Assembly: GCA_963700145.1 (NCBI GenBank)
Contig: OY969474.1
Span: 2,240,001-2,304,000 of the forward strand
DNA: 64,000 nucleotides
Source of the DNA: an uncultured Acidobacteriota bacterium
GTDB lineage: Bacteria > Acidobacteriota > Thermoanaerobaculia > Multivoradales > UBA5704
Direction of reading: 5' to 3'
Positions 13,488-25,463 of the stretch are shown here, piece by piece. Position 1 is the first letter of the stretch. Every line of letters begins with the position of its first letter. The position numbers and the translations under genes were made by a program. The notes under the pieces were generated by a model. That model was not told where the DNA came from and made no database searches. It saw only the letters and a program-made list of their open reading frames with translations.

Positions 13488-14072
13488 GTGGACGAACCAT
13501 CGCCAGGCAGCGTCACGCGCTTCCTCGTCGCATGGCGCGGCGGAGACGAGCAAGCGCTCGAGCGGTTGCTGCCGCTGGTCTACGGCGAGCTGCGCCGGCT
13601 GGCCGGCCGCTACCTGAACCGGGAGCGGGAGGGCCACACCCTCGAGACCCACGACCTCATCCACGAAGCCTTCCTGCGCCTGGTCGACCAGCGGCAGGTG
13701 GACTGGCGCAATCGTGCCCATTTCTTCGCCATCGCCGCGCAAATGATGCGGCGCATCCTGGTCGATCACGCCCGCCGGCGCGGCTACCGCAAGCACGGCG
13801 GCGACGTGCGGCGGCTGATGCTCGACGACGTGCTCGACGTCGCCGCCGAGCGCGACATGGATCTGGTGGCGCTCGACGACGCGCTGACCGAGCTGGCCCG
13901 GGTCGACCCGGAGCTGGCGAAGGTCGTCGACCTGCGCTTTTTCGGCGGCCTCGACCACGACGAGATCGCCGTCGCGCTCGGCGTCTCCAATCCCACCGTC
14001 CGGCGGCGCTGGCGGGTGGCCAAGGCCTGGCTCTACCGCCGGCTCGCGGGCGAGGAGCCGGATGGCGACTGA
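13488..14072 (+). CDS. ECF sigma factor of the Ser/Thr-kinase-associated type
   Basis: LLPLVYGELRRLA, HTLETHDLIHEAFLRL, WRNRAHFFAIAAQMMRRILVDHAR; overlaps the kinase start. Confidence 0.92.
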   Translation: MDEPSPGSVTRFLVAWRGGDEQALERLLPLVYGELRRLAGRYLNREREGHTLETHDLIHEAFLRLVDQRQVDWRNRAHFFAIAAQMMRRILVDHARRRGYRKHGGDVRRLMLDDVLDVAAERDMDLVALDDALTELARVDPELAKVVDLRFFGGLDHDEIAVALGVSNPTVRRRWRVAKAWLYRRLAGEEPDGD

Positions 14073-16574
14073 GCGCTGGCGCGAGATCGAAGCGCTCTTC
14101 GCCGAGGTCGCGGCGCTGCCGGCCGCGGAGCGCACGCCCCACCTGACGCGCCGCTGCGGCGGCGACGAGGACCTGCGGCGGGAGGTCGAGTCCCTCCTCG
14201 CCGCCGACGCCGCGGCCGGCGACTTCCTCGAGCAGCCGGCGGTGCCGCCCGCCGACGTCTCGCCGCCGCCCTCGGCGGTCGGACGCCGGATCGGTCCCTA
14301 CGCCGTCGAGCGCCTCCTCGGCGCGGGCGGCATGAGCACCGTCTACCTCGCCGTGCGCGCCGACGAGGAGTACCGCCAGCAGGTCGCCATCAAGGTCTTC
14401 GGCTACGGCGCCGACCGCGCCGACTTGGTCGAGCGCTTCCGCGCCGAGCGGCAGATTCTGGCCTCCCTCGACCACCCCAACATCGCCCGCCTGCTCGACG
14501 GCGGCACCACCGAGGACGGGCTGCCGTACCTGGTCATGGAGTACGTCGAGGGCCTCCCCATCGACCGCTACTGCGACGAGCGCGGCCTAGGCCTCGACGC
14601 GCGCATCGACCTCTTCCGCCAGGTCTGCGCGGCGGTGCAGTACGCGCACCAGAAACCTGGTGGTCCATCGCGACATCAAGCCGTCGAACATTCTGGTGAC
14701 CGCCGACGGCGTGCCGCATCTCCTCGACTTCGGGATCGCCAAGCTCCTGGCCGGCAGCTCCCTGCCGCCGGCGGCCGCGGCCACGACGACTGGCCAGCGG
14801 CTGATGACGCCGCACTACGCGAGCCCCGAGCAGGTCGAAGGCCGGCCGGTCAACACCGCGAGCGACGTCTACTCCCTGGGCGTCCTGCTCTACGTGCTGC
14901 TGACCGGCCGCCTGCCCTACCGCTTGGAGGCCGAGCGCGTGGACGCGGTCGAGCGCGCGGTCGTCGAGCAGGAGCCGGAGCGGCCGAGCGCGGCGGTCGC
15001 CGCGCGGACGCTCGCCCGCCGGCTCGCCGGCGACCTCGACAACATCGTGCTGACGGCGCTGCGCAAGGAGCCGGCGCGGCGCTACGCCTCGGTCGAGCTG
15101 CTGGCCGAGGACCTGCGGCGCCACCGCACGGGCCTGCCGGTCCTGGCGCGCCCGGCGACCGTCGGCTACCGGGTGGGCAAGTTCGTGGGCCGCCATCGCC
15201 TGGGGGTCGGCGCCGGTTCTGGACCGGGGCGCGGCCCAGATCACCAACGAGCTCGCGGAGCAGCCGGACGTTCAGGCGGCGCTCGCCGTCACCATTGCCC
15301 GGGCCTACGGCGGCCTCGGCCTCTACGATCGCGCCCAGCCCCTCCTCGAGCGCTCGCTCGCCTTGCGGCGCCGGGTCTTCGGCGCCGCGCACCCGGAGGT
15401 GGCCGAGACGCTCCACGAGCTCGGCGTCCTGCATTGGGCGCGCGGCGAGCTGGACCTCGCCGAGGCCACCCTCCGCCAGGCGCTCGCGATGCGCCGGGCG
15501 CTTCTGGACGCCAGCGACCCCGCGGTGGCCGAAACTCTCAACGCGCTGGGCTTGGTGCTCGTCTTCAAGGCGCGGTTCGACGCCGCCGAGCCGTTGCTCC
15601 GCGAAGCCCTCGCCCTCAATCGCGCGCGGTACGGCGACGACCATGAGGAGGTGGGGAGCAACCTGGTCAATCTCGGCCTCCTGACGAAGCAAAAGGGAGA
15701 CCTCGCCGCGGCCGAAGCCCTCTACCGCGAGGGCCTGGCGATCTTCCGCCGGCTCTTGGGCGGGGCACACCCCCAGGTCGTCATCCAGCTCAACAACCTG
15801 GCGGTGCTGCAATACGAGCGCGGGGACTACGCCGCCGCCGAGGCGAGCTACCGCGAGATGCTGCCCGTGGCGCATCGAGTCTACGGCCGGGAGCACCCCC
15901 AGGTCGCCCTCTACCTCCACAACCTCGCGGCCGTGCTCTCCTGGCGCGGCAAGAACGACGAGGCCGAGCGCCTGGAGCGCGAGTCGCTGGCGATGCGGCG
16001 CAAGCTCCTGGGCGGTGAGCACGAGCAGGTCGGGATGGGCCTCAACATGCTCGCCAAGATCCTGGAGGAGAAGGGCGAGCTCGGCCGCAGCCGGCCGATC
16101 TACGAAGAGTCGCTGCGCATCCAACGCCAGGCCCTCGGCGAGGAGCATCCGCGAGTGGCTGCCGTGCTGGCCAATCTCGCCGGCCTGCTCGCCCAGCAGG
16201 GAGATCCCGCGGCCGCCGAGCCCCTGGCCCGACAGGCCCTCGCCATCCGCCGCCGGGCGCTCGGCGAGGCGCACCCGGACGTCGGGTCCTCGCTCGCGCT
16301 GGTCGGATCGCTCCGGCTCGCCCGCGGCGCACCGGCGGAGGCTGAGCCCCTGCTGCGCCAGGGCCTGGGAGTGCTCCGGGCGGCGCTCTCGGACTCCCAC
16401 TGGCGGACCGCCGAGGCGCAGAGCCTGCTCGGGGAGTGCCTGGCGGCGCGAGGGAAGACGGCGGAGGCCGAGCGGCTCATGACCGCCGGCTACGAGACCC
16501 TGGTGAAGACCCGGGGAGTGGAAAACCCCAAGACCGTGGCCGCGCGTCAACGGCTCGCCAAGCTGAACGGTTGA
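14062..16574 (+). pseudogene. Ser/Thr protein kinase with C-terminal TPR repeats, disrupted twice
   Basis: GAGGMSTV, VAIK, HRDIKPSN, DFGIAK, YASPEQ and many LG..HP TPR repeats, spread over three frames. +1 A at ~14653 and a frame-changing junction at ~15215. Confidence 0.85.
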
Positions 16575-16622
16575 TCACTTTCGCCGCGGTTTCCCGCGTT
16601 AGGGGCGAAAGGAGACCGATCC

Positions 16623-16679
16623 ATGAAGACCAAGACCCACGTCAAGGCCGGCGGTATCACGGCGTCCGGCGCCGACTAG
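16623..16679 (+). CDS. peptide precursor MKTKTHVKAGG-ITASGAD
   Basis: Manual translation; AAAGGAGA RBS at 16608-16615; leader paralogous to the four minus-strand peptides. Confidence 0.85.
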   Translation: MKTKTHVKAGGITASGAD

Positions 16680-16755
16680 GCTCCCGAGAGCCGGCAGGAA
16701 GGTTTCGAGGAGGGGCGGAGGCGCGCTCGCGCCGCCGCGCTCGCCCATCGGACAG

Positions 16756-16806
16756 TCAGTCGGTGAGCAGCCTGCCGCCGGCCTTGACGGTCGTCTTGAC
16801 ACGCAT
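16756..16806 (-). CDS. peptide precursor MRVKTTVKAGG-RLLTD
   Basis: Manual translation; GGGAGGTGAT Shine-Dalgarno. Confidence 0.88.
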   Translation of the reverse strand: MRVKTTVKAGGRLLTD

Positions 16807-16855
16807 CGCGATCACCTCCCTTCGCTTGGATTCCAGGCAGCGTTCCGCCGCCGGG

Positions 16856-16906
16856 TCAGTCGCTGAGCAGCACGCCTCCGGCCTTGACGGTCGTCTTGAC
16901 ACGCAT
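16856..16906 (-). CDS. peptide precursor MRVKTTVKAGG-VLLSD
   Basis: Manual translation; GGGAGGTGAT Shine-Dalgarno. Confidence 0.88.
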   Translation of the reverse strand: MRVKTTVKAGGVLLSD

Positions 16907-16958
16907 CGTGATCACCTCCCTTCGCCAGGTTTTTCCTCACAACGTCTTTCGCCGCGGA

Positions 16959-17009
16959 TCAGTCGCCGAAGATGATGCCTCCGGCCTTGACGGTCGTCTT
17001 GACACGCAT
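16959..17009 (-). CDS. peptide precursor MRVKTTVKAGG-IIFGD
   Basis: Manual translation; GGGAGGT Shine-Dalgarno. Confidence 0.88.
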   Translation of the reverse strand: MRVKTTVKAGGIIFGD

Positions 17010-17058
17010 CGCATTTACCTCCCTTCGCAAGGACTCCAGGCAGCGTTTCGCCGCCGGA

Positions 17059-17109
17059 TCAGTCGCCGATGAGCACGCCTCCGGCCTTGACGGTCGTCTT
17101 GACACGCAT
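17059..17109 (-). CDS. peptide precursor MRVKTTVKAGG-VLIGD
   Basis: Manual translation; GGGAGGTGAT Shine-Dalgarno. Confidence 0.88.
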   Translation of the reverse strand: MRVKTTVKAGGVLIGD

Positions 17110-17191
17110 CGCGGATCACCTCCCCTCCGCCCAGATTTTTCGATCGCTGATCCCTGAGTCCCCGCGGGACCGGAATCCGTTCAATCCGGCC

Positions 17192-19321
17192 CTACGGGTG
17201 GGCGATGACGAGGAGCGTCGGCGCGCGCCGCAGGACGCAGGAGAGCGCCTGCCGCAGGCTCTCCGGGTCGAGGGCGGCGAAGCTCTCGTCGAGGACGACC
17301 AGCTCGGCCTTCTGGAGCAGCGCGCGGGCGATGTAGAGCCGGCTCTTCTCGCCGTGCGAGAGCTGCCAGCCCGACTCGCCGACCATCTGCAGCAGGCCGG
17401 CGGGCATGCGGTCGAGGACGTCGCCGAGCCCCAGCTCGCGGCAGACCGCCTCGGCCTCCTCGACGTCGCCCGGCCGCGGCGGCCAAGCGCGGCCCATCAG
17501 CAGGTTGAAGGCGAAGGTGTCGGTCAGGACGTGGTTCTCCTGGAACTGCGGCGCCGCCACCGCCCGCCGCCGCCACCCCTCGGCGCCGAGCGAGTGCCGG
17601 TCCAGGCCGTCGAGCAGCAGCAGCCCCGACTGCGGCAGGCGCAGGCCGGTGAGCAGCGCGGCGAGCGTCGATTTGCCGCCGCCCGAAGGCCCTTCGAGCA
17701 GCAGCCGCTCGCCCTGCCGCACCGCCAGCGAGGCGCCGGCAACGGCGAGGTCGGCGCGCTCGCCGTAGCGGAAGCCGAGGTCGTGCGCCTCGAGGACGAC
17801 CCGCGAGCCGCCGGCGCCTGCCTGCGCCATCGGGATCAAGGCCGCTCCCGGCGCCGACGCCTCGGAGCGCGCGGCGGCGCGGAAGATCGGCGCCACCTGG
17901 TCCCACGCCACCGCCGCCTCCGACAGGTCGGCCAGCCCGCGGACCATCTTCCACAGCGCCCAGTACGCGAAGAGGGCGCCGCCCAAGGCGACGGCGAGGC
18001 TCCCCGACGACGCCGTGCCGGCGACGAACGGCCGGGCGAGCGCGAGGAGGCTCACCAGCAGCCAGCCGCGCGGCACCAGCACCCGCAGCAGCGCCGCCCG
18101 CCGGTCGAGTTCCGCCGAGAGGTCGAGGTAGCGCTCCAGCTCGCCGTCCTCGCGCTCGTGCCAGCGCTCGGCGCTCTGCTGCGCCAGGCGCGTGCGGTGC
18201 CCGACCATCTGCTCGACCAGGTCGTGCGTCATCTCCAGCCGGGCCGCGGTCCAGACGCGCCTTTGCTCGAGGTACCGCCAGCCGAGCCAGAGCGCGAAGG
18301 CGACCCAGGCGAGGAGCGAGAGGGCGTGCGGCCAGCCCCCGGCGCCGGCGGCGAGGACCGGCAGCGCGAGGAGGACCTCGGCGAAGGTGATCACGCCGAC
18401 GTGCGCCCCGGTCAGCGCCAGGAACTCCAGGGCCTCGGCGTTCAGGATGCGGCCGAGGAGCTGGCCGGCGCCCTGGTGGCGCGTCTCCTCGGGCGCCATG
18501 CGCAGGGCGCCCACCAGCAACCGGCGCTTGAAGAGCCGCCCGGCGCGCGCCATCAGCACGCCCGCCGACCAGAGCTCCAGGGCGCGGAACGGGATGACGG
18601 TCAGCTGCAGCAGCACCCAGGCGGTGACCCAGGCGGGATCGAGCCGCCCCCGGAGGACGCCGAGGCCTAGCACCCACCACGACAGGAGGAGCAGCGCGTG
18701 CTGCGCCATGTGCGCGCCGACCAGGACGGCGGCGCGCCCCGGCAGCCCTGCCCGCCGCGCCGCCGCCCAGAAGCTGCCGCCGGGCGGCAGGTCGAGGAGC
18801 CAACAGCCGCCGATCCGCCGCTCGGCGAGCCGCTCGGCGAGGAGCGCCTCGCGCGCCCGCTCCCGCCGGCGCGGCGGCACCGCCGCCTCGTCGAGCAGGC
18901 GGTCCACCTCGGGGCCGAGGCCGGCGTCGAGATCGCCGCGCAGCGCATCGCGCAGCGCGGCCACCGAGACCCGCCGCGGGCGATGATCGCGGCCGAGCAC
19001 GCGGACCTGCCGGCGGCCGCCGGCGAGGAGGGCGAGGAAGCCGCCCGCGGCCCCCGGCAGGCGGAGCAGCGCCGGCGCGGCGTGGCCGACCAGCGCCGCT
19101 ACCTCGCCGTAGGCGGCCTCGACGGGCTCGGCCTCGAGCCCCATCGCCGCCGCCGCGGCGCCGATCCAGCGGTCCAGCTCCTCGACCGAGACCTCCGGGG
19201 GCGGCTCCGGCAGGTCGAGCTTGCCGGGTGCGAGCCCGGCGGCGCGGGCCAGGGCGGAGAGCGCCTCGCCGAGCCGATCGGCCGGCCAGACGAGCGCGTC
19301 GAGGTCGGGCCGCGCCTTCAC
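17192..19321 (-). CDS. ABC exporter subunit (TMD+NBD) with degenerate peptidase-like N-terminus
   Basis: GTG at 19321 overlaps the upstream stop; GPSGGGKST, LSHGEKSR, VVLDESF, IAHP. Confidence 0.9.
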   Translation of the reverse strand: MKARPDLDALVWPADRLGEALSALARAAGLAPGKLDLPEPPPEVSVEELDRWIGAAAAAMGLEAEPVEAAYGEVAALVGHAAPALLRLPGAAGGFLALLAGGRRQVRVLGRDHRPRRVSVAALRDALRGDLDAGLGPEVDRLLDEAAVPPRRRERAREALLAERLAERRIGGCWLLDLPPGGSFWAAARRAGLPGRAAVLVGAHMAQHALLLLSWWVLGLGVLRGRLDPAWVTAWVLLQLTVIPFRALELWSAGVLMARAGRLFKRRLLVGALRMAPEETRHQGAGQLLGRILNAEALEFLALTGAHVGVITFAEVLLALPVLAAGAGGWPHALSLLAWVAFALWLGWRYLEQRRVWTAARLEMTHDLVEQMVGHRTRLAQQSAERWHEREDGELERYLDLSAELDRRAALLRVLVPRGWLLVSLLALARPFVAGTASSGSLAVALGGALFAYWALWKMVRGLADLSEAAVAWDQVAPIFRAAARSEASAPGAALIPMAQAGAGGSRVVLEAHDLGFRYGERADLAVAGASLAVRQGERLLLEGPSGGGKSTLAALLTGLRLPQSGLLLLDGLDRHSLGAEGWRRRAVAAPQFQENHVLTDTFAFNLLMGRAWPPRPGDVEEAEAVCRELGLGDVLDRMPAGLLQMVGESGWQLSHGEKSRLYIARALLQKAELVVLDESFAALDPESLRQALSCVLRRAPTLLVIAHP

Positions 19322-22023
19322 CCTTCCTCCGCCTCGGTCAAGCGGCCGCGCTCCATCCGCAGCCGCCGCCAGACCGTGCTCTGCCAGAGCCCCGACCGCA
19401 CGTCGCCTTCGGCGGCCAGGAGCGCGGCGTAGCGCGACCCCGGTTGCGCGGCGAGGCGCTCGGGCGGGCCGTCCTCGACGATGCGGCCGTTCTCGACGAC
19501 GAGGGCGCGCGCGAAGCCCAGCGTCTCGCCGACGTCGTGGGTGACGCAGAGCAGCGTCGCGCCCTGCCAGAGACGGCGGGCCCGCGCCAGCAGCTCGCGC
19601 CGCTGCTCGCGGTCGAGACCGCGGAACGGCTCGTCGAGAAGGACCAGGCGCACCCCGGGCCGCAGCAGCGCGCGCGCCAGGCGCACTCGCTGGCCCTCGC
19701 CGCCGGAGACCAGGCCGCCGCCTTCGCCGAGCGGCGTCTGCAGGCCCTCCGGCAGCTTGCGCAGCACGGCCACCAGGTCGGCGGCGCCGATCGCCTGGTC
19801 GAGCGGCAGGCCGAGGCCCTCTGCCGCGCCGTAGCGGAGGTTTTCGAGCAGCGGCCGGTTCCAGAGCTGCACCGCCGGATCGACCCAGGCGGTCTCGCGG
19901 CGCAGCGCCTGCAGCCGCTCGCCGCCGAGCGGCTCGCCGTCCACCAGCACGCGGCCCGCGGCCGGCCGGTGCCAGCCGAGGAGAGTCCCGAGGAGGCTCG
20001 ACTTGCCGGCGCCGGAGGGGCCGACGATGGCGACGTGCTCGCCGGGCGCGATCGCGGCGCCGATGCCGGCGAGGATCGTGTGCCCGCCGGCGCGCACGCC
20101 GACGTCCTCCCAGACGATGCCGGCGGCGGGCGCGGGCGACGACGTCAGAGAAGACGGCGCGGCGGCGTGCGGTCCGGCCTCCTCGGCCTCCTCCGGCGCG
20201 CCGAGCGGCTCGAGCAGGCGCAGGGCGACGTTGCGGTGCGAGGGGTACTGGGTGGCGATCGCCAGGATCAGCATCTGCCCGAGGCTCAGGACCTTGAGCC
20301 CCCAGTAGACGAGCAGCAGGATGCCGCCGTCGAGCCCGCGGCGGGCGAGGTGATCGACGAGCAGGACGATCACCATCGAGACCATGGCGATCTGCACCGC
20401 CGTGTCCGCCGCCACCTCGGCGCGGCGCAGGTGGAGGTAAGAGCGCCCCCACTCGACGAGCAGCCCCTCGTGCTGCCGCCGCACCGCCGTCTGCGCGCCG
20501 TGGGTGCGGATCGGGAAGAGGCCGAGGAGCGCGTCGAGGTAGAAGCGCGACAGTGCGCCGGCGTGGTTGCGCACCCGCAGGTCCCACTCCTCGAGCCGCG
20601 GCAGCAGCACGAGCGGCACGCCGACCGCCAGCGCCGCAGCGACGGCGACGACCAGGAGGCTCCCCGGGTCGAGCCAGACGATGCCGGCCAGGGTGAAGAG
20701 CAGCTCGCAGGCGGTGCGCACGAACCACTCGCCGAGGTCGGGCACCAGGCGGAGGCGGTGGACGCCGTGGCTGCGGTCGGCCATGTCGGAGGTCAGGCGG
20801 CTCTGGAAGTAGCGGTCGCCCAAGCGCGGCACCTTGCGCAGGAAGGCCATCCGCAGCCGCGCCTCGAGGTGCCGCCCCAGACGCTGCGCGCCGCGCACGA
20901 TCGGCAGGTCGAGGAGGAGGAAGAGGGCGACGACGGCGAACAGCATGCCGAGCGCCGCGGCCCGCTGGGCGCCGAGCCCAAGCGCCCGCGGCAGGTCGAA
21001 GAAGGCGCGGAAGAGGAGCGCCTCGACGACGACCCCGAGGCCGGCGACCAGCAGCGCCAGCGCCAGCGCGCCCGGCGCGAAGCGGCCGCCGGCGGCGAGC
21101 AGGCGGAGCAGCTCGCGGCCCGGCCGCGCCGGCGGCTCGGCGAGGGCGGCCGCCAGCTCGGGCGAGAGCGGGCTCGGCGCGGCGGCTGCGGCATCGGACT
21201 CCGGTCCGCGGCGGCCGCGGACGCGCACCAGGACGGCGCCGCGCAAGAGCACCTGCTCCTCGCCGTCCGCGCCCGGCGGGCCGGGCCGCACGGACCACCA
21301 GGCCTCGGGCACGGCCTCTGTCGCCGTCTCTCCACCGTCGCGGCAGCGAGCGAGCAGTGAGCGCAGCAGTCGCCCGGCCTCGCCGCCTTTGGCGAGCCCG
21401 CCCGCGGCGACGAGTGAACGGGTCATGCGCACGCAAGCGTCGAGCGCGGCGAGCGCGCGCCAGCCGGGATCGGCCAGTGCCGCCGCCAGCAGCTCGCCGG
21501 CCTCGGCGTCCGAGATGCCGAGCTCGCCCAGGAACGCCCGCTGAACGTCGAGGAAGTCGGCCGAGCCGGCCCATTCGCGGAAGGCCGCCGCCGGCACCGC
21601 CTGCCGGTGGCGGTAGAGCTCGCCGAGGAGCCGGCGCGCCGTCGTCCAACGGCGCCCGGTGGCCGGGTCCATCACCTGGACGAGCGGGCCGTGGCGGCGC
21701 CAGACGACGATGAAGTGGGTCAGCCCGCTCGGGTGGCGGACGACGACGATCGCCGGCAGGTTGTGCGCCGCCGGCGCCAGCAGGTGGTCCGCCGGCACCA
21801 CGACCTGCTCGGCCTCCAGGCCGAGCTGCGCCGCGACCTCCTCCATGGTGTCGATCGAGGTGCCGTCGAGATCGATCTGGCAGGCCTCGCGCAGGCGGCC
21901 GTAGCTCACCGGGATGGCGAAGCCTTCGAGCAGCGACTTGAGGGTCGCCGGCCCGCAGTCCATGGCCGAGGTCTGGACGACCTCGGGGGCGAGGAAGGAG
22001 CGGCGGTCCGGCGGGCGGGACAT
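19318..22023 (-). CDS. peptidase-containing ABC transporter (C39 domain + TMD + NBD)
   Basis: QTSAMDCGPA (catalytic Cys), HFIVV, VMDPA; GPSGAGKSS, VSGGEGQR, LLDEP; ATG at 22023. Confidence 0.93.
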   Translation of the reverse strand: MSRPPDRRSFLAPEVVQTSAMDCGPATLKSLLEGFAIPVSYGRLREACQIDLDGTSIDTMEEVAAQLGLEAEQVVVPADHLLAPAAHNLPAIVVVRHPSGLTHFIVVWRRHGPLVQVMDPATGRRWTTARRLLGELYRHRQAVPAAAFREWAGSADFLDVQRAFLGELGISDAEAGELLAAALADPGWRALAALDACVRMTRSLVAAGGLAKGGEAGRLLRSLLARCRDGGETATEAVPEAWWSVRPGPPGADGEEQVLLRGAVLVRVRGRRGPESDAAAAAPSPLSPELAAALAEPPARPGRELLRLLAAGGRFAPGALALALLVAGLGVVVEALLFRAFFDLPRALGLGAQRAAALGMLFAVVALFLLLDLPIVRGAQRLGRHLEARLRMAFLRKVPRLGDRYFQSRLTSDMADRSHGVHRLRLVPDLGEWFVRTACELLFTLAGIVWLDPGSLLVVAVAAALAVGVPLVLLPRLEEWDLRVRNHAGALSRFYLDALLGLFPIRTHGAQTAVRRQHEGLLVEWGRSYLHLRRAEVAADTAVQIAMVSMVIVLLVDHLARRGLDGGILLLVYWGLKVLSLGQMLILAIATQYPSHRNVALRLLEPLGAPEEAEEAGPHAAAPSSLTSSPAPAAGIVWEDVGVRAGGHTILAGIGAAIAPGEHVAIVGPSGAGKSSLLGTLLGWHRPAAGRVLVDGEPLGGERLQALRRETAWVDPAVQLWNRPLLENLRYGAAEGLGLPLDQAIGAADLVAVLRKLPEGLQTPLGEGGGLVSGGEGQRVRLARALLRPGVRLVLLDEPFRGLDREQRRELLARARRLWQGATLLCVTHDVGETLGFARALVVENGRIVEDGPPERLAAQPGSRYAALLAAEGDVRSGLWQSTVWRRLRMERGRLTEAEEG

Positions 22024-22031
22024 GCGGGCGG

Positions 22032-23198
22032 CTAGTCGGCGGCGGCGGGGCGGTCGAAGACCTTGCCGACCGTGCGCAGGACGAGGACGGCGGGCGCCAC
22101 CCGCTCGACCTCCACCTCCGCCGTGCCCGGCAGGCCGTGCTGCAGCGGCAGCCGGGAGCGGCGGTCCGGCCGCAGGGCGAGCTCGACGCGGATGCGCCCG
22201 TCGCGCGGCTCGCTGGCGACGCGGGCGACGCGCGCGGCCAAGTGCCCGTACTGCGCCGAGGGGAAGCCACTCAGGACGATCCGCGCCGGCTGCCGCGGCC
22301 GGATCCGGCCGAGGGCGGAGGCGGGCGCGAACTCGGCGATCCCCTTGAGGTCGCCCGCCGGCACCACCATCCCGAGCTGCTCGCCGGCGGCGACGACCGA
22401 GCCGACCCGCACCGCCGCGATCTCCGCGACGCGGCCGGCGACTGGCGCTCGGATCGCGCGCAATCCGACGTCGCGCTCCAGGCGCCGGACGGCGGCGCCG
22501 GCGGCGGCGGCCTGCCCGGCGAGCAGCGCCAGCTCGCGCTCCAGCTCGTCGACGTCGCCGCGCCGCTCGCCCTCGGTGCTCCGCTCCTCGTAGCCGAGGC
22601 GGTCGAGGGTGCGGCGCAGGGCATCGGCGGCGGCGCGCCGCTGCTCGGCCGCCGAGCGCGCCCTCTCCGCCTCGGCCGCCGGCACCAGCCCCTGGGCGAG
22701 GAGGCGCTCCTGCCGGTCGGCCTCCTGCTGCGCCAGCCGCGCCGCGGCCTCCGCCTCCCGGGTCTTGGCGAGCGTCTCCTCGATGCCGGCGCGGGAGGCG
22801 CCGAGCCGGCCGGCCAGCGACCGCCCGCCGGCCGCGATCTGCTGGCGCAGAGCGGCGATCTGCCCGGCGAGAGCGTCCCGCCGCGCCCGCTCCTCGTCGA
22901 GCCGCGCCCGCGGCTCCTCCGCCTCCAGCTCGATCAGGACTTGGCCCTGGCGCACCCGCTGCCCGAGCGCCGCCCGCACCGCCGCCACCCGCCCCTCGAC
23001 CGGCGCCGCCAGCGGATGCGCCTCGCGCCCCACCGCCAGCCAGGCGCGGTCCGTGACCTCGTACACCGACACCCGCCCGCGCACGAACCACACCCCCCAG
23101 GCGCCGAGCAGCAACAGCGCCGGCACCAACCCGGCGATCCACCGCCGGTGGCCGTCAACCTCAAGGGCGCGCAACGTGCGCGAGAACGGGCTGGGCAT
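22032..23198 (-). CDS. HlyD family membrane fusion protein
   Basis: N-terminal TM, APVEGRV and IRAPVAGRV half-lipoyl motifs, long coiled coil. Confidence 0.9.
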   Translation of the reverse strand: MPSPFSRTLRALEVDGHRRWIAGLVPALLLLGAWGVWFVRGRVSVYEVTDRAWLAVGREAHPLAAPVEGRVAAVRAALGQRVRQGQVLIELEAEEPRARLDEERARRDALAGQIAALRQQIAAGGRSLAGRLGASRAGIEETLAKTREAEAAARLAQQEADRQERLLAQGLVPAAEAERARSAAEQRRAAADALRRTLDRLGYEERSTEGERRGDVDELERELALLAGQAAAAGAAVRRLERDVGLRAIRAPVAGRVAEIAAVRVGSVVAAGEQLGMVVPAGDLKGIAEFAPASALGRIRPRQPARIVLSGFPSAQYGHLAARVARVASEPRDGRIRVELALRPDRRSRLPLQHGLPGTAEVEVERVAPAVLVLRTVGKVFDRPAAAD

Positions 23199-23275
23199 GC
23201 GAGTGCGGCAGCGTAGCACCGGCCAAGGTCAGCCCTTCGAGTCACCGCTCGTCGTGGGACGGCTCCAGAGAAGAA

Positions 23276-23304
23276 TTGACCGCTTCGACGCGCGAGAATA
23301 GACT
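23276..23304 (+). promoter_or_regulatory. sigma70-like promoter
   Basis: TTGACC-N17-TAGACT upstream of ATG 23355. Confidence 0.6.
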
Positions 23305-23354
23305 TGGCTATCCGTTGTCGTCATCGTCGCGTGCGCACACGCCGGGAGGCTCAC

Positions 23355-25463
23355 ATGATCTTGGTCAAGACGTCGCATCGCCGCGGCCTGTTTGCGTCGG
23401 CATGTGTGATCGCGTGTTTCTCGCTTGGCGGCATCGCGCTCGCGGGCGAGATTGATGGCGACATCGCCAACACGAACCCGATCAGTTGCGGAAGCAACCC
23501 GGCCGCCTCGATCGTCAAGGTGTGCAACACCGTGAAGAAGGTCTTTTCCTCGATCACCTGTCCGAGCGATAAGAATTCGTGTGTCAAGCCAAAGCGGGAG
23601 ATCTTCACAGGCCTGACCGTCGAGGGCGCGACGCCCACCAATATCAAGCCGTGGAACGGACAAGGCGGCGGCGGCGAGGTTTTCCAACTGGTCGGCGTCT
23701 GCTTGATGCGCGACCTGGCCGTCACACCCATGAAGTCGCATGCGGAGGCGACCATTGAGGTCGGGCTGACAAGCGCGACGGTCTCTGCGGACGGCCTCGT
23801 CTCTTACGGGAGGTTCGACAAGACCGATCTGACCAAACTGCGCTTCGAGGGCTTCCACAGCTTGCGCGCGCATGCGCCGATCATCGGCGACATCGACATT
23901 TTCACGCAGCCCTTCTCGCTGCAGACGGTCTCGCAGTCCCTCCAGGGCCAAGGGTTGAAGGTCGGCGGCTACGACGTCTATGGCGCACAGGCGCTCGAGC
24001 TCGAAGCGGTGGGCGGAGCCCAGAGGTTCGACTTCGCCCTCGATGCCATCAAGATCGTGACGCCCTACGGGACGATCTCGCCCCAGCCCCATGTCGGATT
24101 CGCGCAGGTCCTCGGCTGGAGCATGTCGCCCTATGGCGGCGCCAGCACGATGCTGCTCAATCCGGGCGCGTACCAAGTCACCGACGTCTATGGCCGCCTG
24201 GGCGGACAGAAGGTCGCGAGCGGCCTCAACGTCGTCAAGACGACAAGCGGCCCTGGCGGGCCGGGCTGCATCCCCGTCCAAATCAGTCCCGACAAGATCT
24301 GCCCCAATCCGGTTGGTTGGGACAGCCAAGTTCTCCTCGGCTCGCGCAACGTCAACCTCGATACGTCCATTGCGGTGAACACGCCTTGGACAGCGCCGCC
24401 CGGCGTCGCCTTTCCGGATCGGCCGGACGCCCAACCGCAGCGCGCACGCGGCGATGCCGAGAAGACACCCGGCGGTGCTGCGTCGGCCGGTATCAAGATC
24501 GAATACACGCCGCCCATTCCGCTGCCGGAGATACCGGCCCCTGTCGCGTTGACGGCGAAGCTGAGCGTGTTCGTCGATCCCAATATCGTCGTGCTCTACG
24601 GAAGCCAGTACAATCTGTGGAACGGACAAGTCGGCACATGGCTGCCTGGAGGCGTGCCGTTCGGCGCGCCGACCTTGGGTACGCCGGTCGACGTGCAAAG
24701 CCTACAGAGCATGGCGATCTATGCCGCCTCGACGGTCTATGGCCGCTTCGCGCTCGATGCCGGGGTCGACATCGTGCTCCACGTGCACATCACGCTGCCC
24801 AAGGTGTGCAGCCCCTTCGACTCCGACGAGTGCTGGCCGGACGACATCGACTTCGACATTGTCGATCTCCATCCGCGTACGGCGTTTCTGGAGAGCAAAG
24901 CCGGTGACACGGAGCCTTCGGAGCAAGCCGCCTTTGCGCTCGTCGACTCGCAAAACTTCGTCAAGACCCAGAAACTCTTCAGTATCTTCACACCGCTGAA
25001 TGGCACGCCCACCGACGGCGTCGCCTACATCGAGCAGTGCCTGAAGCAGGATGCGCCGGCGGCGCAAGATCCGCCCGAGAATCCCTACGTTCCGGGCGAT
25101 CCCCAAGCCCTCGTTGAAGTGATCGAGATGCCCTGCAATGTCTGCCTCGGCATGCCGGACATCAAGTATCAATACCCTCTCGAGTGGGACCCGGTCACCG
25201 CCCACGTGACGAAGTCGGAGACCCGCACGCAGGAAGGCTTCGGCATCAAGCAGCTGCCAGAGGTGACAGACGGGCTTGAGCCGGGTGATCAATGGCTATG
25301 CGCCTGGGTCCCGCAACTCGAGCGGGTCGTGAACTTGGGCTGCTACGACCAATGCCGGGTCAACAAGGCGACCAACACGTTCACGGTGATCGCCTCCGCC
25401 AAGACACTTTGGGCAGAAGGCAAGTTCACCGGCGAATCGTTGCCGCCCCACGGCTGCCTCTAA
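23355..25463 (+). CDS. secreted Cys-rich hypothetical protein
   Basis: GGGAGG RBS; signal peptide ending ALA; 16 Cys in the mature part; visibly lower GC. Confidence 0.8.
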   Translation: MILVKTSHRRGLFASACVIACFSLGGIALAGEIDGDIANTNPISCGSNPAASIVKVCNTVKKVFSSITCPSDKNSCVKPKREIFTGLTVEGATPTNIKPWNGQGGGGEVFQLVGVCLMRDLAVTPMKSHAEATIEVGLTSATVSADGLVSYGRFDKTDLTKLRFEGFHSLRAHAPIIGDIDIFTQPFSLQTVSQSLQGQGLKVGGYDVYGAQALELEAVGGAQRFDFALDAIKIVTPYGTISPQPHVGFAQVLGWSMSPYGGASTMLLNPGAYQVTDVYGRLGGQKVASGLNVVKTTSGPGGPGCIPVQISPDKICPNPVGWDSQVLLGSRNVNLDTSIAVNTPWTAPPGVAFPDRPDAQPQRARGDAEKTPGGAASAGIKIEYTPPIPLPEIPAPVALTAKLSVFVDPNIVVLYGSQYNLWNGQVGTWLPGGVPFGAPTLGTPVDVQSLQSMAIYAASTVYGRFALDAGVDIVLHVHITLPKVCSPFDSDECWPDDIDFDIVDLHPRTAFLESKAGDTEPSEQAAFALVDSQNFVKTQKLFSIFTPLNGTPTDGVAYIEQCLKQDAPAAQDPPENPYVPGDPQALVEVIEMPCNVCLGMPDIKYQYPLEWDPVTAHVTKSETRTQEGFGIKQLPEVTDGLEPGDQWLCAWVPQLERVVNLGCYDQCRVNKATNTFTVIASAKTLWAEGKFTGESLPPHGCL

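Follow-up and report, generated by a model that had tools for sequence, protein, structure and literature searches.

A tandem array of four 16-codon minigenes in an uncultured Acidobacteriota bacterium (Thermoanaerobaculia; Multivoradales; UBA5704) probably represents a set of real genes for minimal double-glycine precursors, which would be cut and exported as penta- to heptapeptides. The array was studied in the window, the whole stretch of 64,000 nt taken from contig OY969474.1 (assembly GCA_963700145.1, positions 2,240,001 to 2,304,000), where it occupies positions 16756-17109 of the minus strand and is unannotated. The probability of this reading is estimated at roughly two in three. What carries it, on the level of the sequence, is the structure of the genes, their membership of a family, a conserved linkage to one type of exporter and the intact C39 peptidase active site of that exporter. 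The precursor would consist of an 11-residue tag, M-x-x-K-T-x-V-K-A-G-G, and a 5-residue cargo. The four minigenes (u1 to u4) and a fifth, convergent member of the family are the following (aa, amino acids; SD, Shine-Dalgarno sequence):

17109..17059, minus strand: minigene u1, MRVKTTVKAGG-VLIGD, stop TGA, SD GGGGAGGT
17009..16959, minus strand: minigene u2, MRVKTTVKAGG-IIFGD, stop TGA
16906..16856, minus strand: minigene u3, MRVKTTVKAGG-VLLSD, stop TGA
16806..16756, minus strand: minigene u4, MRVKTTVKAGG-RLLTD, stop TGA
16623..16679, plus strand: fifth, convergent member ("type B") of 18 aa, MKTKTHVKAGG-ITASGAD, SD AAGGAG, stop TAG

The motif GGGAGGT is found 6-8 nt 5' of the ATG in u1, u2, u3 and u4, and the terminal Asp codon GAC and the TGA stop never vary across the four units. 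A preliminary description of this DNA had reported four tandem 16-aa precursors with GGGAGGT, an invariant leader, 5-aa cores, a conserved terminal Asp and TGA, all of which were seen again here, on the minus strand. Its inventory of the array is correct for the four units; the strand and the fifth gene had been missed. This fifth paralogue, given as MKTKTHVKAGGITASGAD, starts 48 nt 3' of a gene for a kinase with TPR repeats (described below) and has orthologues at the equivalent place in two genomes of the same genus. All five peptides carry KAGG at residues 8-11, which places Gly at positions -2 and -1, as at the end of a double-glycine leader. A degenerate version of the leader pattern has five matches in the 5.46-Mb genome, every one of them at this locus, and the reversed control has none. 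From this gene signature we infer that the minigenes are translated. No RNA run was listed in a search for sequencing runs that contain the locus.

The repeat structure gives an indication of how the array evolved. Tandem Repeats Finder reported a period of 100 bp (3.5 copies, score 489) and a period of 203 bp (1.8 copies, score 612, 89% matches), and the longer period points to the duplication of a two-gene block (u1+u2 / u3+u4). When the two blocks are compared, 1/66 nt differ in the leaders, 8/49 nt in the inter-gene spacer and 10/30 nt in the cores, where five of the six differing codons are non-synonymous. Judging from these differences, the tags stayed identical after the block duplication and the cargo codons diverged. 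The earlier claim that changes are concentrated in the core is supported with regard to the leader, which is unusually constant in comparison with the spacer (Fisher p=0.0045), but less so with regard to the core itself, which is about twice as variable as the spacer, a modest and non-significant excess (Fisher p=0.10). At positions 16744-16854 of the window, one metagenome contig, which comes from a relative with 90-95% identity, lacks 109 nt and has 15 other letters instead. This corresponds to one repeat unit fewer and suggests that the copy number of the array varies among close relatives.

The leader DNA is nearly identical in the four copies, synonymous sites included, which could result from selection at the nucleotide level or from gene conversion, and would also be compatible with an untranslated repeated DNA or RNA element in which the open frames are incidental. 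In addition, hairpins are located 3' of two units:

17035..17058, minus strand: GC hairpin just 3' of the u1 stop, with a GGCGGCG-AAA-CGCUGCC core
16833..16855, minus strand: similar hairpin just 3' of the u3 stop, compared in its folding with shuffles

A hairpin after the stop of some units had been proposed in the preliminary description, and this is what was found. The structure after u1 is clear (-19.2 kcal/mol, z -2.5; 3/200 shuffles fold equally well), the one after u3 is weaker (-15.9 kcal/mol, z -1.4; 14/200 shuffles equal), and after the stops of u2 (z -0.6) and u4 (z +0.6) the folding is no better than that of shuffles. No T-tract was found 3' of any of the four units. An untranslated element is nevertheless considered extremely improbable. 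The RNA of the whole array folds no better than shuffles (z +0.75; 74/100 shuffles at least equal), the amino acids are kept between genomes through many synonymous changes, and ATG, SD, frame and stop stay intact from phylum to phylum.

The family to which the minigenes belong is large. The pattern K-T-x-V-K-A-G-G was found in 24/300 genomes of the same order, with 49 matches, compared to three matches in 3/300 genomes for a reversed control pattern. Nearly all of the same-order matches lie three codons past an ATG or GTG with a ribosome-binding site, and the frame closes 3-10 codons past the GG. In a scan of one genome per prokaryotic species, with ATG added to the pattern, at least 127 stretches match. 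Among the matches listed, 164 distinct open reading frames (ORFs) were counted: 114 of at most 30 aa, 31 multi-core chains and 19 other or chance cases, the latter being matches inside ordinary proteins. The 114 short ORFs among the matches listed include 37 of 16 aa, 33 of 17 aa and 11 of 18 aa, and an SD-like motif precedes 104 of them. In the multi-core chains the tag is repeated ahead of every core, as in MTIKTNVKAGG-LNIQHNESLAVRS-NVKAGG-ISIQHNE...

Members of the family are found in Acidobacteriota, Planctomycetota, Myxococcota, Chloroflexota and Gammaproteobacteria. Among the matches listed are Blastocatellia, Pyrinomonadaceae, Thermoanaerobaculia, Bryobacterales, Pirellulaceae, Planctomycetaceae, Polyangiales, Nannocystaceae, Anaerolineae, Ardenticatenaceae, Pseudomonadales, Gemmatimonadaceae and others. 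Core types are specific to lineages, for example [VI][LIV]x[GSA]D and [IV][TV]x[TS]G[AV]D in Thermoanaerobaculia, GxxWxG and GxxFxG in Pirellulaceae, [FY]xW[ST]x in Pseudomonadales, GPIMDPNG in Pyrinomonadaceae and QI[ST]NI in a deltaproteobacterial metagenome-assembled genome (MAG).

A comparison of leader and core substitutions across genomes, which had been suggested as a check in the preliminary description, was made with 31 type-A genes. In these between-genome comparisons, of which the pairs are not independent, leader codons show 32% synonymous and 22% non-synonymous differences, and core codons show 16% and 63%, respectively. These values point to purifying selection on the tag. The predominance of non-synonymous changes in the core agrees with the earlier idea of diversifying signal alleles; the core VLIGD, however, recurs in six genomes of two genera, which does not, and the core type xxxTGAD is present at ten loci. 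The pattern is that of a conserved core plus variable paralogues, rather than of free diversification, as far as can be read from these sequences. In all homologous arrays examined so far, the frame, the ribosome-binding site and the stop are preserved.

Database searches returned little for these peptides. NCBIfam and Pfam gave nothing above cut-off for 13 longer family members, and the 16-18-aa peptides of the window are below the 20-residue minimum of the profile searches. A 79-aa multi-core member has 173 database relatives, almost all named "hypothetical protein" or nameless, and a Pfam domain is present in only three of them. No paper describing the family was found in the open literature, subscription journals and supplements being outside the search. 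One set of ORFs was set apart from the family: those of 42-47 aa in four Bathyarchaeota MAG records, which match the pattern and in which an initial MR[AVL]KTMVKAGG is followed by a conserved basic helix-like part, look like a different small protein.

Upstream of the array, on the same strand, a tight operon encodes an exporter of the type that processes double-glycine precursors, without an outer-membrane component in the locus:

22032..23219, minus strand: HlyD-family membrane-fusion adaptor, start GTG 23219 or ATG 23198
19318..22023, minus strand: PCAT, a C39 peptidase-containing ABC exporter of 901 aa, with active-site Gln, Cys, His and Asp present
17192..19321, minus strand: ABC2, a second ABC exporter subunit of 709 aa, with a predicted non-catalytic C39-like domain at the N-terminus

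The GTG start of ABC2 overlaps the stop codon of PCAT (GTGA), and the array starts 82 nt past ABC2. This is the only exporter of its kind in the genome. The C39 domain of the PCAT aligns with PCAT1 (4RY2; E 1.4e-8), ComA and LahT150. Across nine C39 domains from tag-peptide loci, 56 columns are invariant, including the catalytic Gln, Cys, His and Asp, and the domain looks catalytically competent on this basis.

The N-terminal domain of ABC2 (residues 1-175) has no Pfam match and no sequence match in the PDB. An AlphaFold (AF2) model of these residues, built from 21 orthologues, has a pLDDT of 89.9 and resembles the C39 and C39-like domains of ABC exporters (Z 8.3-9.3, root-mean-square deviation ~3.1 Å over 109-117 residues), which fill the top 13 rows of the fold comparison. 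The Foldseek E-values are weak by themselves (0.02). No Cys or His is invariant in the alignment of ABC2 orthologues, so the modelled domain would be a dead C39-like domain. Its profile retrieves 1,030 cluster representatives at E<=1e-10 among 1.84 billion.

The N-terminal 11 residues of the peptides are far more conserved than the rest, within the array as well as across phyla. This raises the question whether the 11-mer itself is functional, for instance by plugging or regulating the exporter or its dead C39-like domain, with tails that matter little. Non-catalytic C39-like domains are known to bind substrates in other exporters, according to the passages of PMC6363468 on such domains. The conservation of core types within lineages (VLIGD in six genomes, xxxTGAD at ten loci) and the invariant terminal Asp of the array speak against such a role, as do the multi-core relatives, in which tag and core alternate like in processing substrates, and the conserved C39 active site. 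A functional 11-mer is distinctly improbable.

Linkage between tag peptides and exporter genes was searched with tblastn, using the window proteins against the tag-peptide loci. Orthologues of ABC2, 46-99% identical, end beside tag-peptide genes in many loci of Acidobacteriota and Pirellulaceae, and in Pseudomonadales and Gammaproteobacteria an HlyD and a PCAT (C39 domain 53-62% identical) are found beside the tag peptides. Regions were counted by hand, with overlapping loci merged, chance hits dropped and flanks of at most 2 kb, which resulted in ~66 regions. An exporter component is present in the flank of 26 of these, a relative of a kinase, a TPR protein or an extracytoplasmic function (ECF) sigma factor in 14, and one or the other in 38.

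The same linkage is visible in the window's family (92 genomes, in which related genomes are not independent). After removal of one chance tag hit, 27 genomes contain the ABC2 N-domain, 18 the tag pattern and 14 both, and the pattern occurs in 4/65 family genomes without ABC2. Three more ABC2-positive genomes have variant tags, KAGA, KAGT and STVKAGG, adjoining ABC2. The whole module, consisting of sigma factor, kinase/TPR, peptides facing peptides, ABC2, PCAT and HlyD, is seen again in two genomes of the same genus, each time with two type-A and one or two type-B peptides. It is likewise present in one different genus, where multi-core peptides take their place. In two other family-mates, the exporter and the peptides occur with no kinase nearby, which indicates that the pairing with the kinase is frequent and not obligatory.

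Other genes within ~10 kb of the array encode CarB (carB), a pyridoxal-phosphate (PLP) enzyme, a DUF1428 protein, a short-chain dehydrogenase/reductase (SDR), a PEP-mutase-family protein, DinB and fumarase. A predicted secreted protein of 719 aa is encoded at 23304-25463 on the plus strand, divergent from HlyD, with a third-position GC below that of its neighbours. It was considered as a part of the system and rejected, as it has no Pfam or NCBIfam match and is absent from the same place in a same-genus genome.

Two intergenic elements flank the peptide genes. The first is situated between the ABC2 stop and u1:

17155..17184, minus strand: conserved TTGAAC-N17/18-GGGACT[CG]A element

This element occupies the same position in the window as in two further family genomes, and is possibly a promoter of the array itself. 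A search for the motif ahead of the ECF sigma and HlyD genes, in the window and in six related loci, gave nothing, which leaves no evidence for the sigma factor driving the array. The second element, at 16575-16622 (plus strand), is the spacer of 48 nt that separates the fifth gene from the kinase stop. It hardly differs among three species, in which the flanking coding DNA shows an identity of only ~81%. A small hairpin, CGCGG-TTTC-CCGCG, is located inside this spacer, which may be a promoter or an RNA element.

A second array was observed outside the window, at 3942237-3942495 (plus strand) of the same genome. It encodes three tag peptides ending in Gly-Ala, MKVQTNLKAGA-RHQIIDWGMG, the same tag with -RHQIIDVG, and MKVKTNLKAGA-RHQIIDFG, with a decayed fourth copy just upstream. 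Its neighbours, an alpha-2-macroglobulin, a 389-aa secreted protein without Pfam match and an FG-GAP protein, have no homologue in the other tag-peptide loci compared. The core type of this array (xxHI[IV][DE][IL]G) adjoins ABC2 in two other genomes.

The proposed pathway starts with transcription of the minigenes with, or just behind, the HlyD / PCAT / ABC2 operon. The C39 domain of the PCAT would recognize the 16-mers by their tag, possibly preceded by the dead C39-like domain of ABC2, and would cut after Gly-Gly. The peptides VLIGD, IIFGD, VLLSD and RLLTD and the heptapeptide ITASGAD would then be pumped from the cytoplasm as unmodified linear peptides. We infer cleavage at this site, export and the lack of modification from the sequence features of the locus and its relatives. 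Natural variants of the tag keep Gly at -2 and have G, A or T at -1. According to the passages of PMC6363468 on leader processing, leader ends follow a GG/GA/GS rule. An invariant Gly at -2 with a variable -1 is what this rule describes, and cleavage after the second Gly fits. It also fits the multi-core relatives, which carry ...VKAGG ahead of each core. In the same passages of PMC6363468, a leader remnant of 13 residues suffices for a related C39 protease, so that the 11-residue tag would be near the known limits, short but not absurd.

Several observations weigh against this reading. The rules described for LahT150 and ComA in these passages of PMC6363468 consist of hydrophobic residues at -4, -7 and -12, and in LahT150 a Lys at -4 or -7 abolished or strongly reduced cleavage. 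The tag breaks these canonical rules, since its residues at -4, -7 and -8 are Lys, Thr and Lys and it does not reach -12; either its recognition differs or cleavage may not occur. If it does occur, either the C39 domain reads the tag in another register, in which -5 and -9 are the hydrophobic positions, or the tag is docked by the dead C39-like domain of ABC2. The missing outer-membrane component adds to this, as does the absence of an exporter near the second, three-gene array of the genome. The tag pattern was not found in 13/27 ABC2-positive genomes of the family, and in 8/15 ABC2-positive genomes inspected no peptide gene is present just downstream of ABC2. The exporter proteins remain far below the curated cut-offs of TIGR03794 (46.3/156.2 bits), TIGR03796 (138.4/853.3) and TIGR03797 (105.7/709.4), the PCAT query having been scored without its first 41 residues. 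Finally, a cargo of five residues is smaller than that of any PCAT known to us.

The nature of the exported product has also to be considered. The minigenes could encode precursors of peptides synthesized by ribosomes and modified after translation (RiPPs), for which the tag would bring in a modifying enzyme encoded at another place, and the product would then not be a plain pentapeptide. Many cores elsewhere in the family contain Trp, Phe or Tyr. In Pseudomonadales, the cores FSWSN and FTWSN adjoin Rieske and HpaB-like oxygenase genes, and a Nannocystaceae member (LNVSGL) adjoins a P450 and DUF6734. Given these neighbours, the tag may serve modified products in other lineages. In five MAG records of Pseudomonadales and Gammaproteobacteria, FSWSN, FTWSN, FSWSR and FSWSQ peptides are encoded between HlyD/PCAT and the Rieske-type and HpaB-like genes. 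At the present locus the situation is different. No candidate peptide-modifying enzyme was found within ~10 kb of the array, nor in two related loci or in the same-genus and same-family loci inspected, and the cores consist of aliphatic residues, Gly/Ser/Thr and Asp, with no Cys and, except for one Phe, no aromatic partner for a cross-link. RiPP precursors are therefore unlikely here, and as no tailoring gene is near, export of unmodified pentapeptides would be the simplest outcome.

PCAT systems commonly export bacteriocins and microcins, as stated in PMC6363468 where it introduces them, and diversification of paralogues is typical of antagonistic systems. The peptides could accordingly be viewed as very small microcin-like weapons or immunity-linked products, rather than as signals or neutral cargo. 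Five unmodified residues would be very short for an antimicrobial, however; no gene for an immunity-like small membrane protein was found in the locus, and the conserved neighbours are regulators, a kinase and a sigma factor, and not immunity genes. A role as weapons is considered very improbable.

A peptide with a double-glycine leader combined with a PCAT is a known kind of system, represented by ComC/ComAB, the class II bacteriocins and ProcA/LahT (as far as these are described in PMC6363468). The precursors studied here have in common with these a leader that ends in Gly-Gly with Ala at -3, and a gene that adjoins an ABC exporter whose C39 domain is catalytically complete, with an HlyD-type adaptor, as in Gram-negative versions. 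The tag, in contrast to the canonical leader L(-12)xxxE(-8)L(-7)xx[VIL](-4), is only 11 residues long and has its hydrophobic residues at -5 and -9, out of register. The preliminary description had rightly noted a leader shorter than, and unlike, the canonical one. Further differences are the cargo of 5-7 residues and the two ABC subunits, one of them with a putatively dead C39-like domain.

The three-gene architecture of the exporter is shared with the NHLP/Nif11 export trio (TIGR03794, TIGR03796 and TIGR03797), which is among the most specific NCBIfam matches of these proteins. Nif11-type leaders also end in ...AGG. The NHLP/Nif11 precursors carry a leader domain, which the window peptides cannot hold with their 16-18 aa in total. 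Another small peptide to be compared is PatS, a gene product of 13-17 aa of which the active part is the C-terminal pentapeptide; unlike the minigenes, it has no GG tag of this kind. In Nostoc PCC 7120, the Gram-negative PCAT HetC, needed for heterocyst differentiation, has been proposed to export a small signalling peptide (PMC10986499, in its passages on HetC). These passages give HetC a cyclic-nucleotide-binding domain, by which it is set apart from the present exporter.

On the far side of the array from the exporter, two genes point to a regulatory function:

13488..14072, plus strand: ECF-type sigma factor, TIGR02999 217 bits vs a cut-off of 126; PF07638
14062..16574, plus strand: Hanks-type Ser/Thr receptor kinase with C-terminal TPR_10/TPR_12, a disrupted copy

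The sigma gene is directly upstream of the kinase gene. The latter has two lesions. One is an extra A (+1 nt) that closely precedes the HRD motif, near 14653; the other, near 15214, is a deletion of 191 nt by which the transmembrane segment is lost. The disruption may reflect a real pseudogene or a fault of the assembly. In two genomes of the same genus the kinase is intact and has 900 codons, with the kinase domain at 80-348, a single transmembrane helix at ~380-400 and the TPR part at ~460-880. The single helix between kinase and TPR indicates that the TPR part is periplasmic. Two other intact sigma/kinase/TPR modules are present in the genome, near 365 kb and 5.405 Mb.

This layout, in which an ECF gene is followed by a kinase with a transmembrane segment and a periplasmic TPR part, resembles the ECF43/Hanks kinase pairs PknS/EcfK of Xanthomonas citri and PknT/EcfP of Vibrio parahaemolyticus, as these are presented in PMC13147305. 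In the passages of that paper on these pairs, ECF43 sigma factors are activated through phosphorylation by the adjacent transmembrane Hanks kinase, and the periplasmic TPRs of X. citri PknS are needed for its function, the signal being described as unknown. The locus and its relatives differ in that the sigma/kinase pair faces tag-peptide genes and an exporter, and in that the kinase is broken in this genome. The likeness to ECF43 is one of layout only. The criterion considered for ECF43 is the replacement of DxxD in region 2.2 by a Thr-containing motif (QTTA consensus); region 2.2 of the window sigma factor, inspected by eye, reads LETHDLIHEAF, with Thr present and the last Asp kept. In comparison with the ComC/ComAB/ComDE circuit, an ECF sigma factor and a Hanks-type kinase with TPRs take the place of the histidine kinase and response regulator.

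An ECF43-like layout facing an exporter with tiny peptides makes these peptides natural ligand candidates for the TPR kinase. With their free C-terminal carboxylate, the exported peptides might act as cell-cell signals among Gram-negative soil bacteria and bind the periplasmic TPR part, upon which the kinase would phosphorylate and activate the ECF43-like sigma factor. A signalling role is plausible from the neighbouring genes, and this particular circuit is put forward as a tentative proposal, which we consider rather doubtful. The genome studied here has a disrupted cognate kinase and an array that has doubled and diverged, and its two intact paralogous sigma/kinase/TPR modules could be the listeners. 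In the deltaproteobacterial MAG, arrays of two and four near-identical MKKKTxVKAGG-QI[ST]NI peptides adjoin sigma-54 activators with FHA domains. FHA domains are readers of phospho-threonine, which hints at Ser/Thr-kinase signalling at these arrays.

The locus is a well-supported real example of a family of minimal double-glycine peptides that crosses phyla and has an exporter of its own; this family is apparently undescribed. New with respect to the known kind of system are the 11-residue, out-of-register tag and the cargo of 5-7 residues, and also the pairing of an active C39 subunit with a dead C39-like subunit and the fact that a TPR kinase and an ECF sigma factor often accompany the system. 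If the reading given here is true, hundreds of genes of 14-30 codons belonging to one family are missing from annotations. The tag would be perhaps the shortest natural double-glycine leader and would break the recognition rules, which bears on the specificity of PCATs and on the engineering of leader tags. Signalling by processed and exported oligopeptides is textbook knowledge in Gram-positive bacteria and is hardly documented in Gram-negative phyla. If the signalling proposal also holds, a ligand class would be named for the TPR receptor kinases paired with ECF43, with a candidate that can be synthesized, and the locus would represent a peptide circuit resembling quorum sensing, in which exporter, eukaryote-like kinase and sigma factor stand in for a two-component system.

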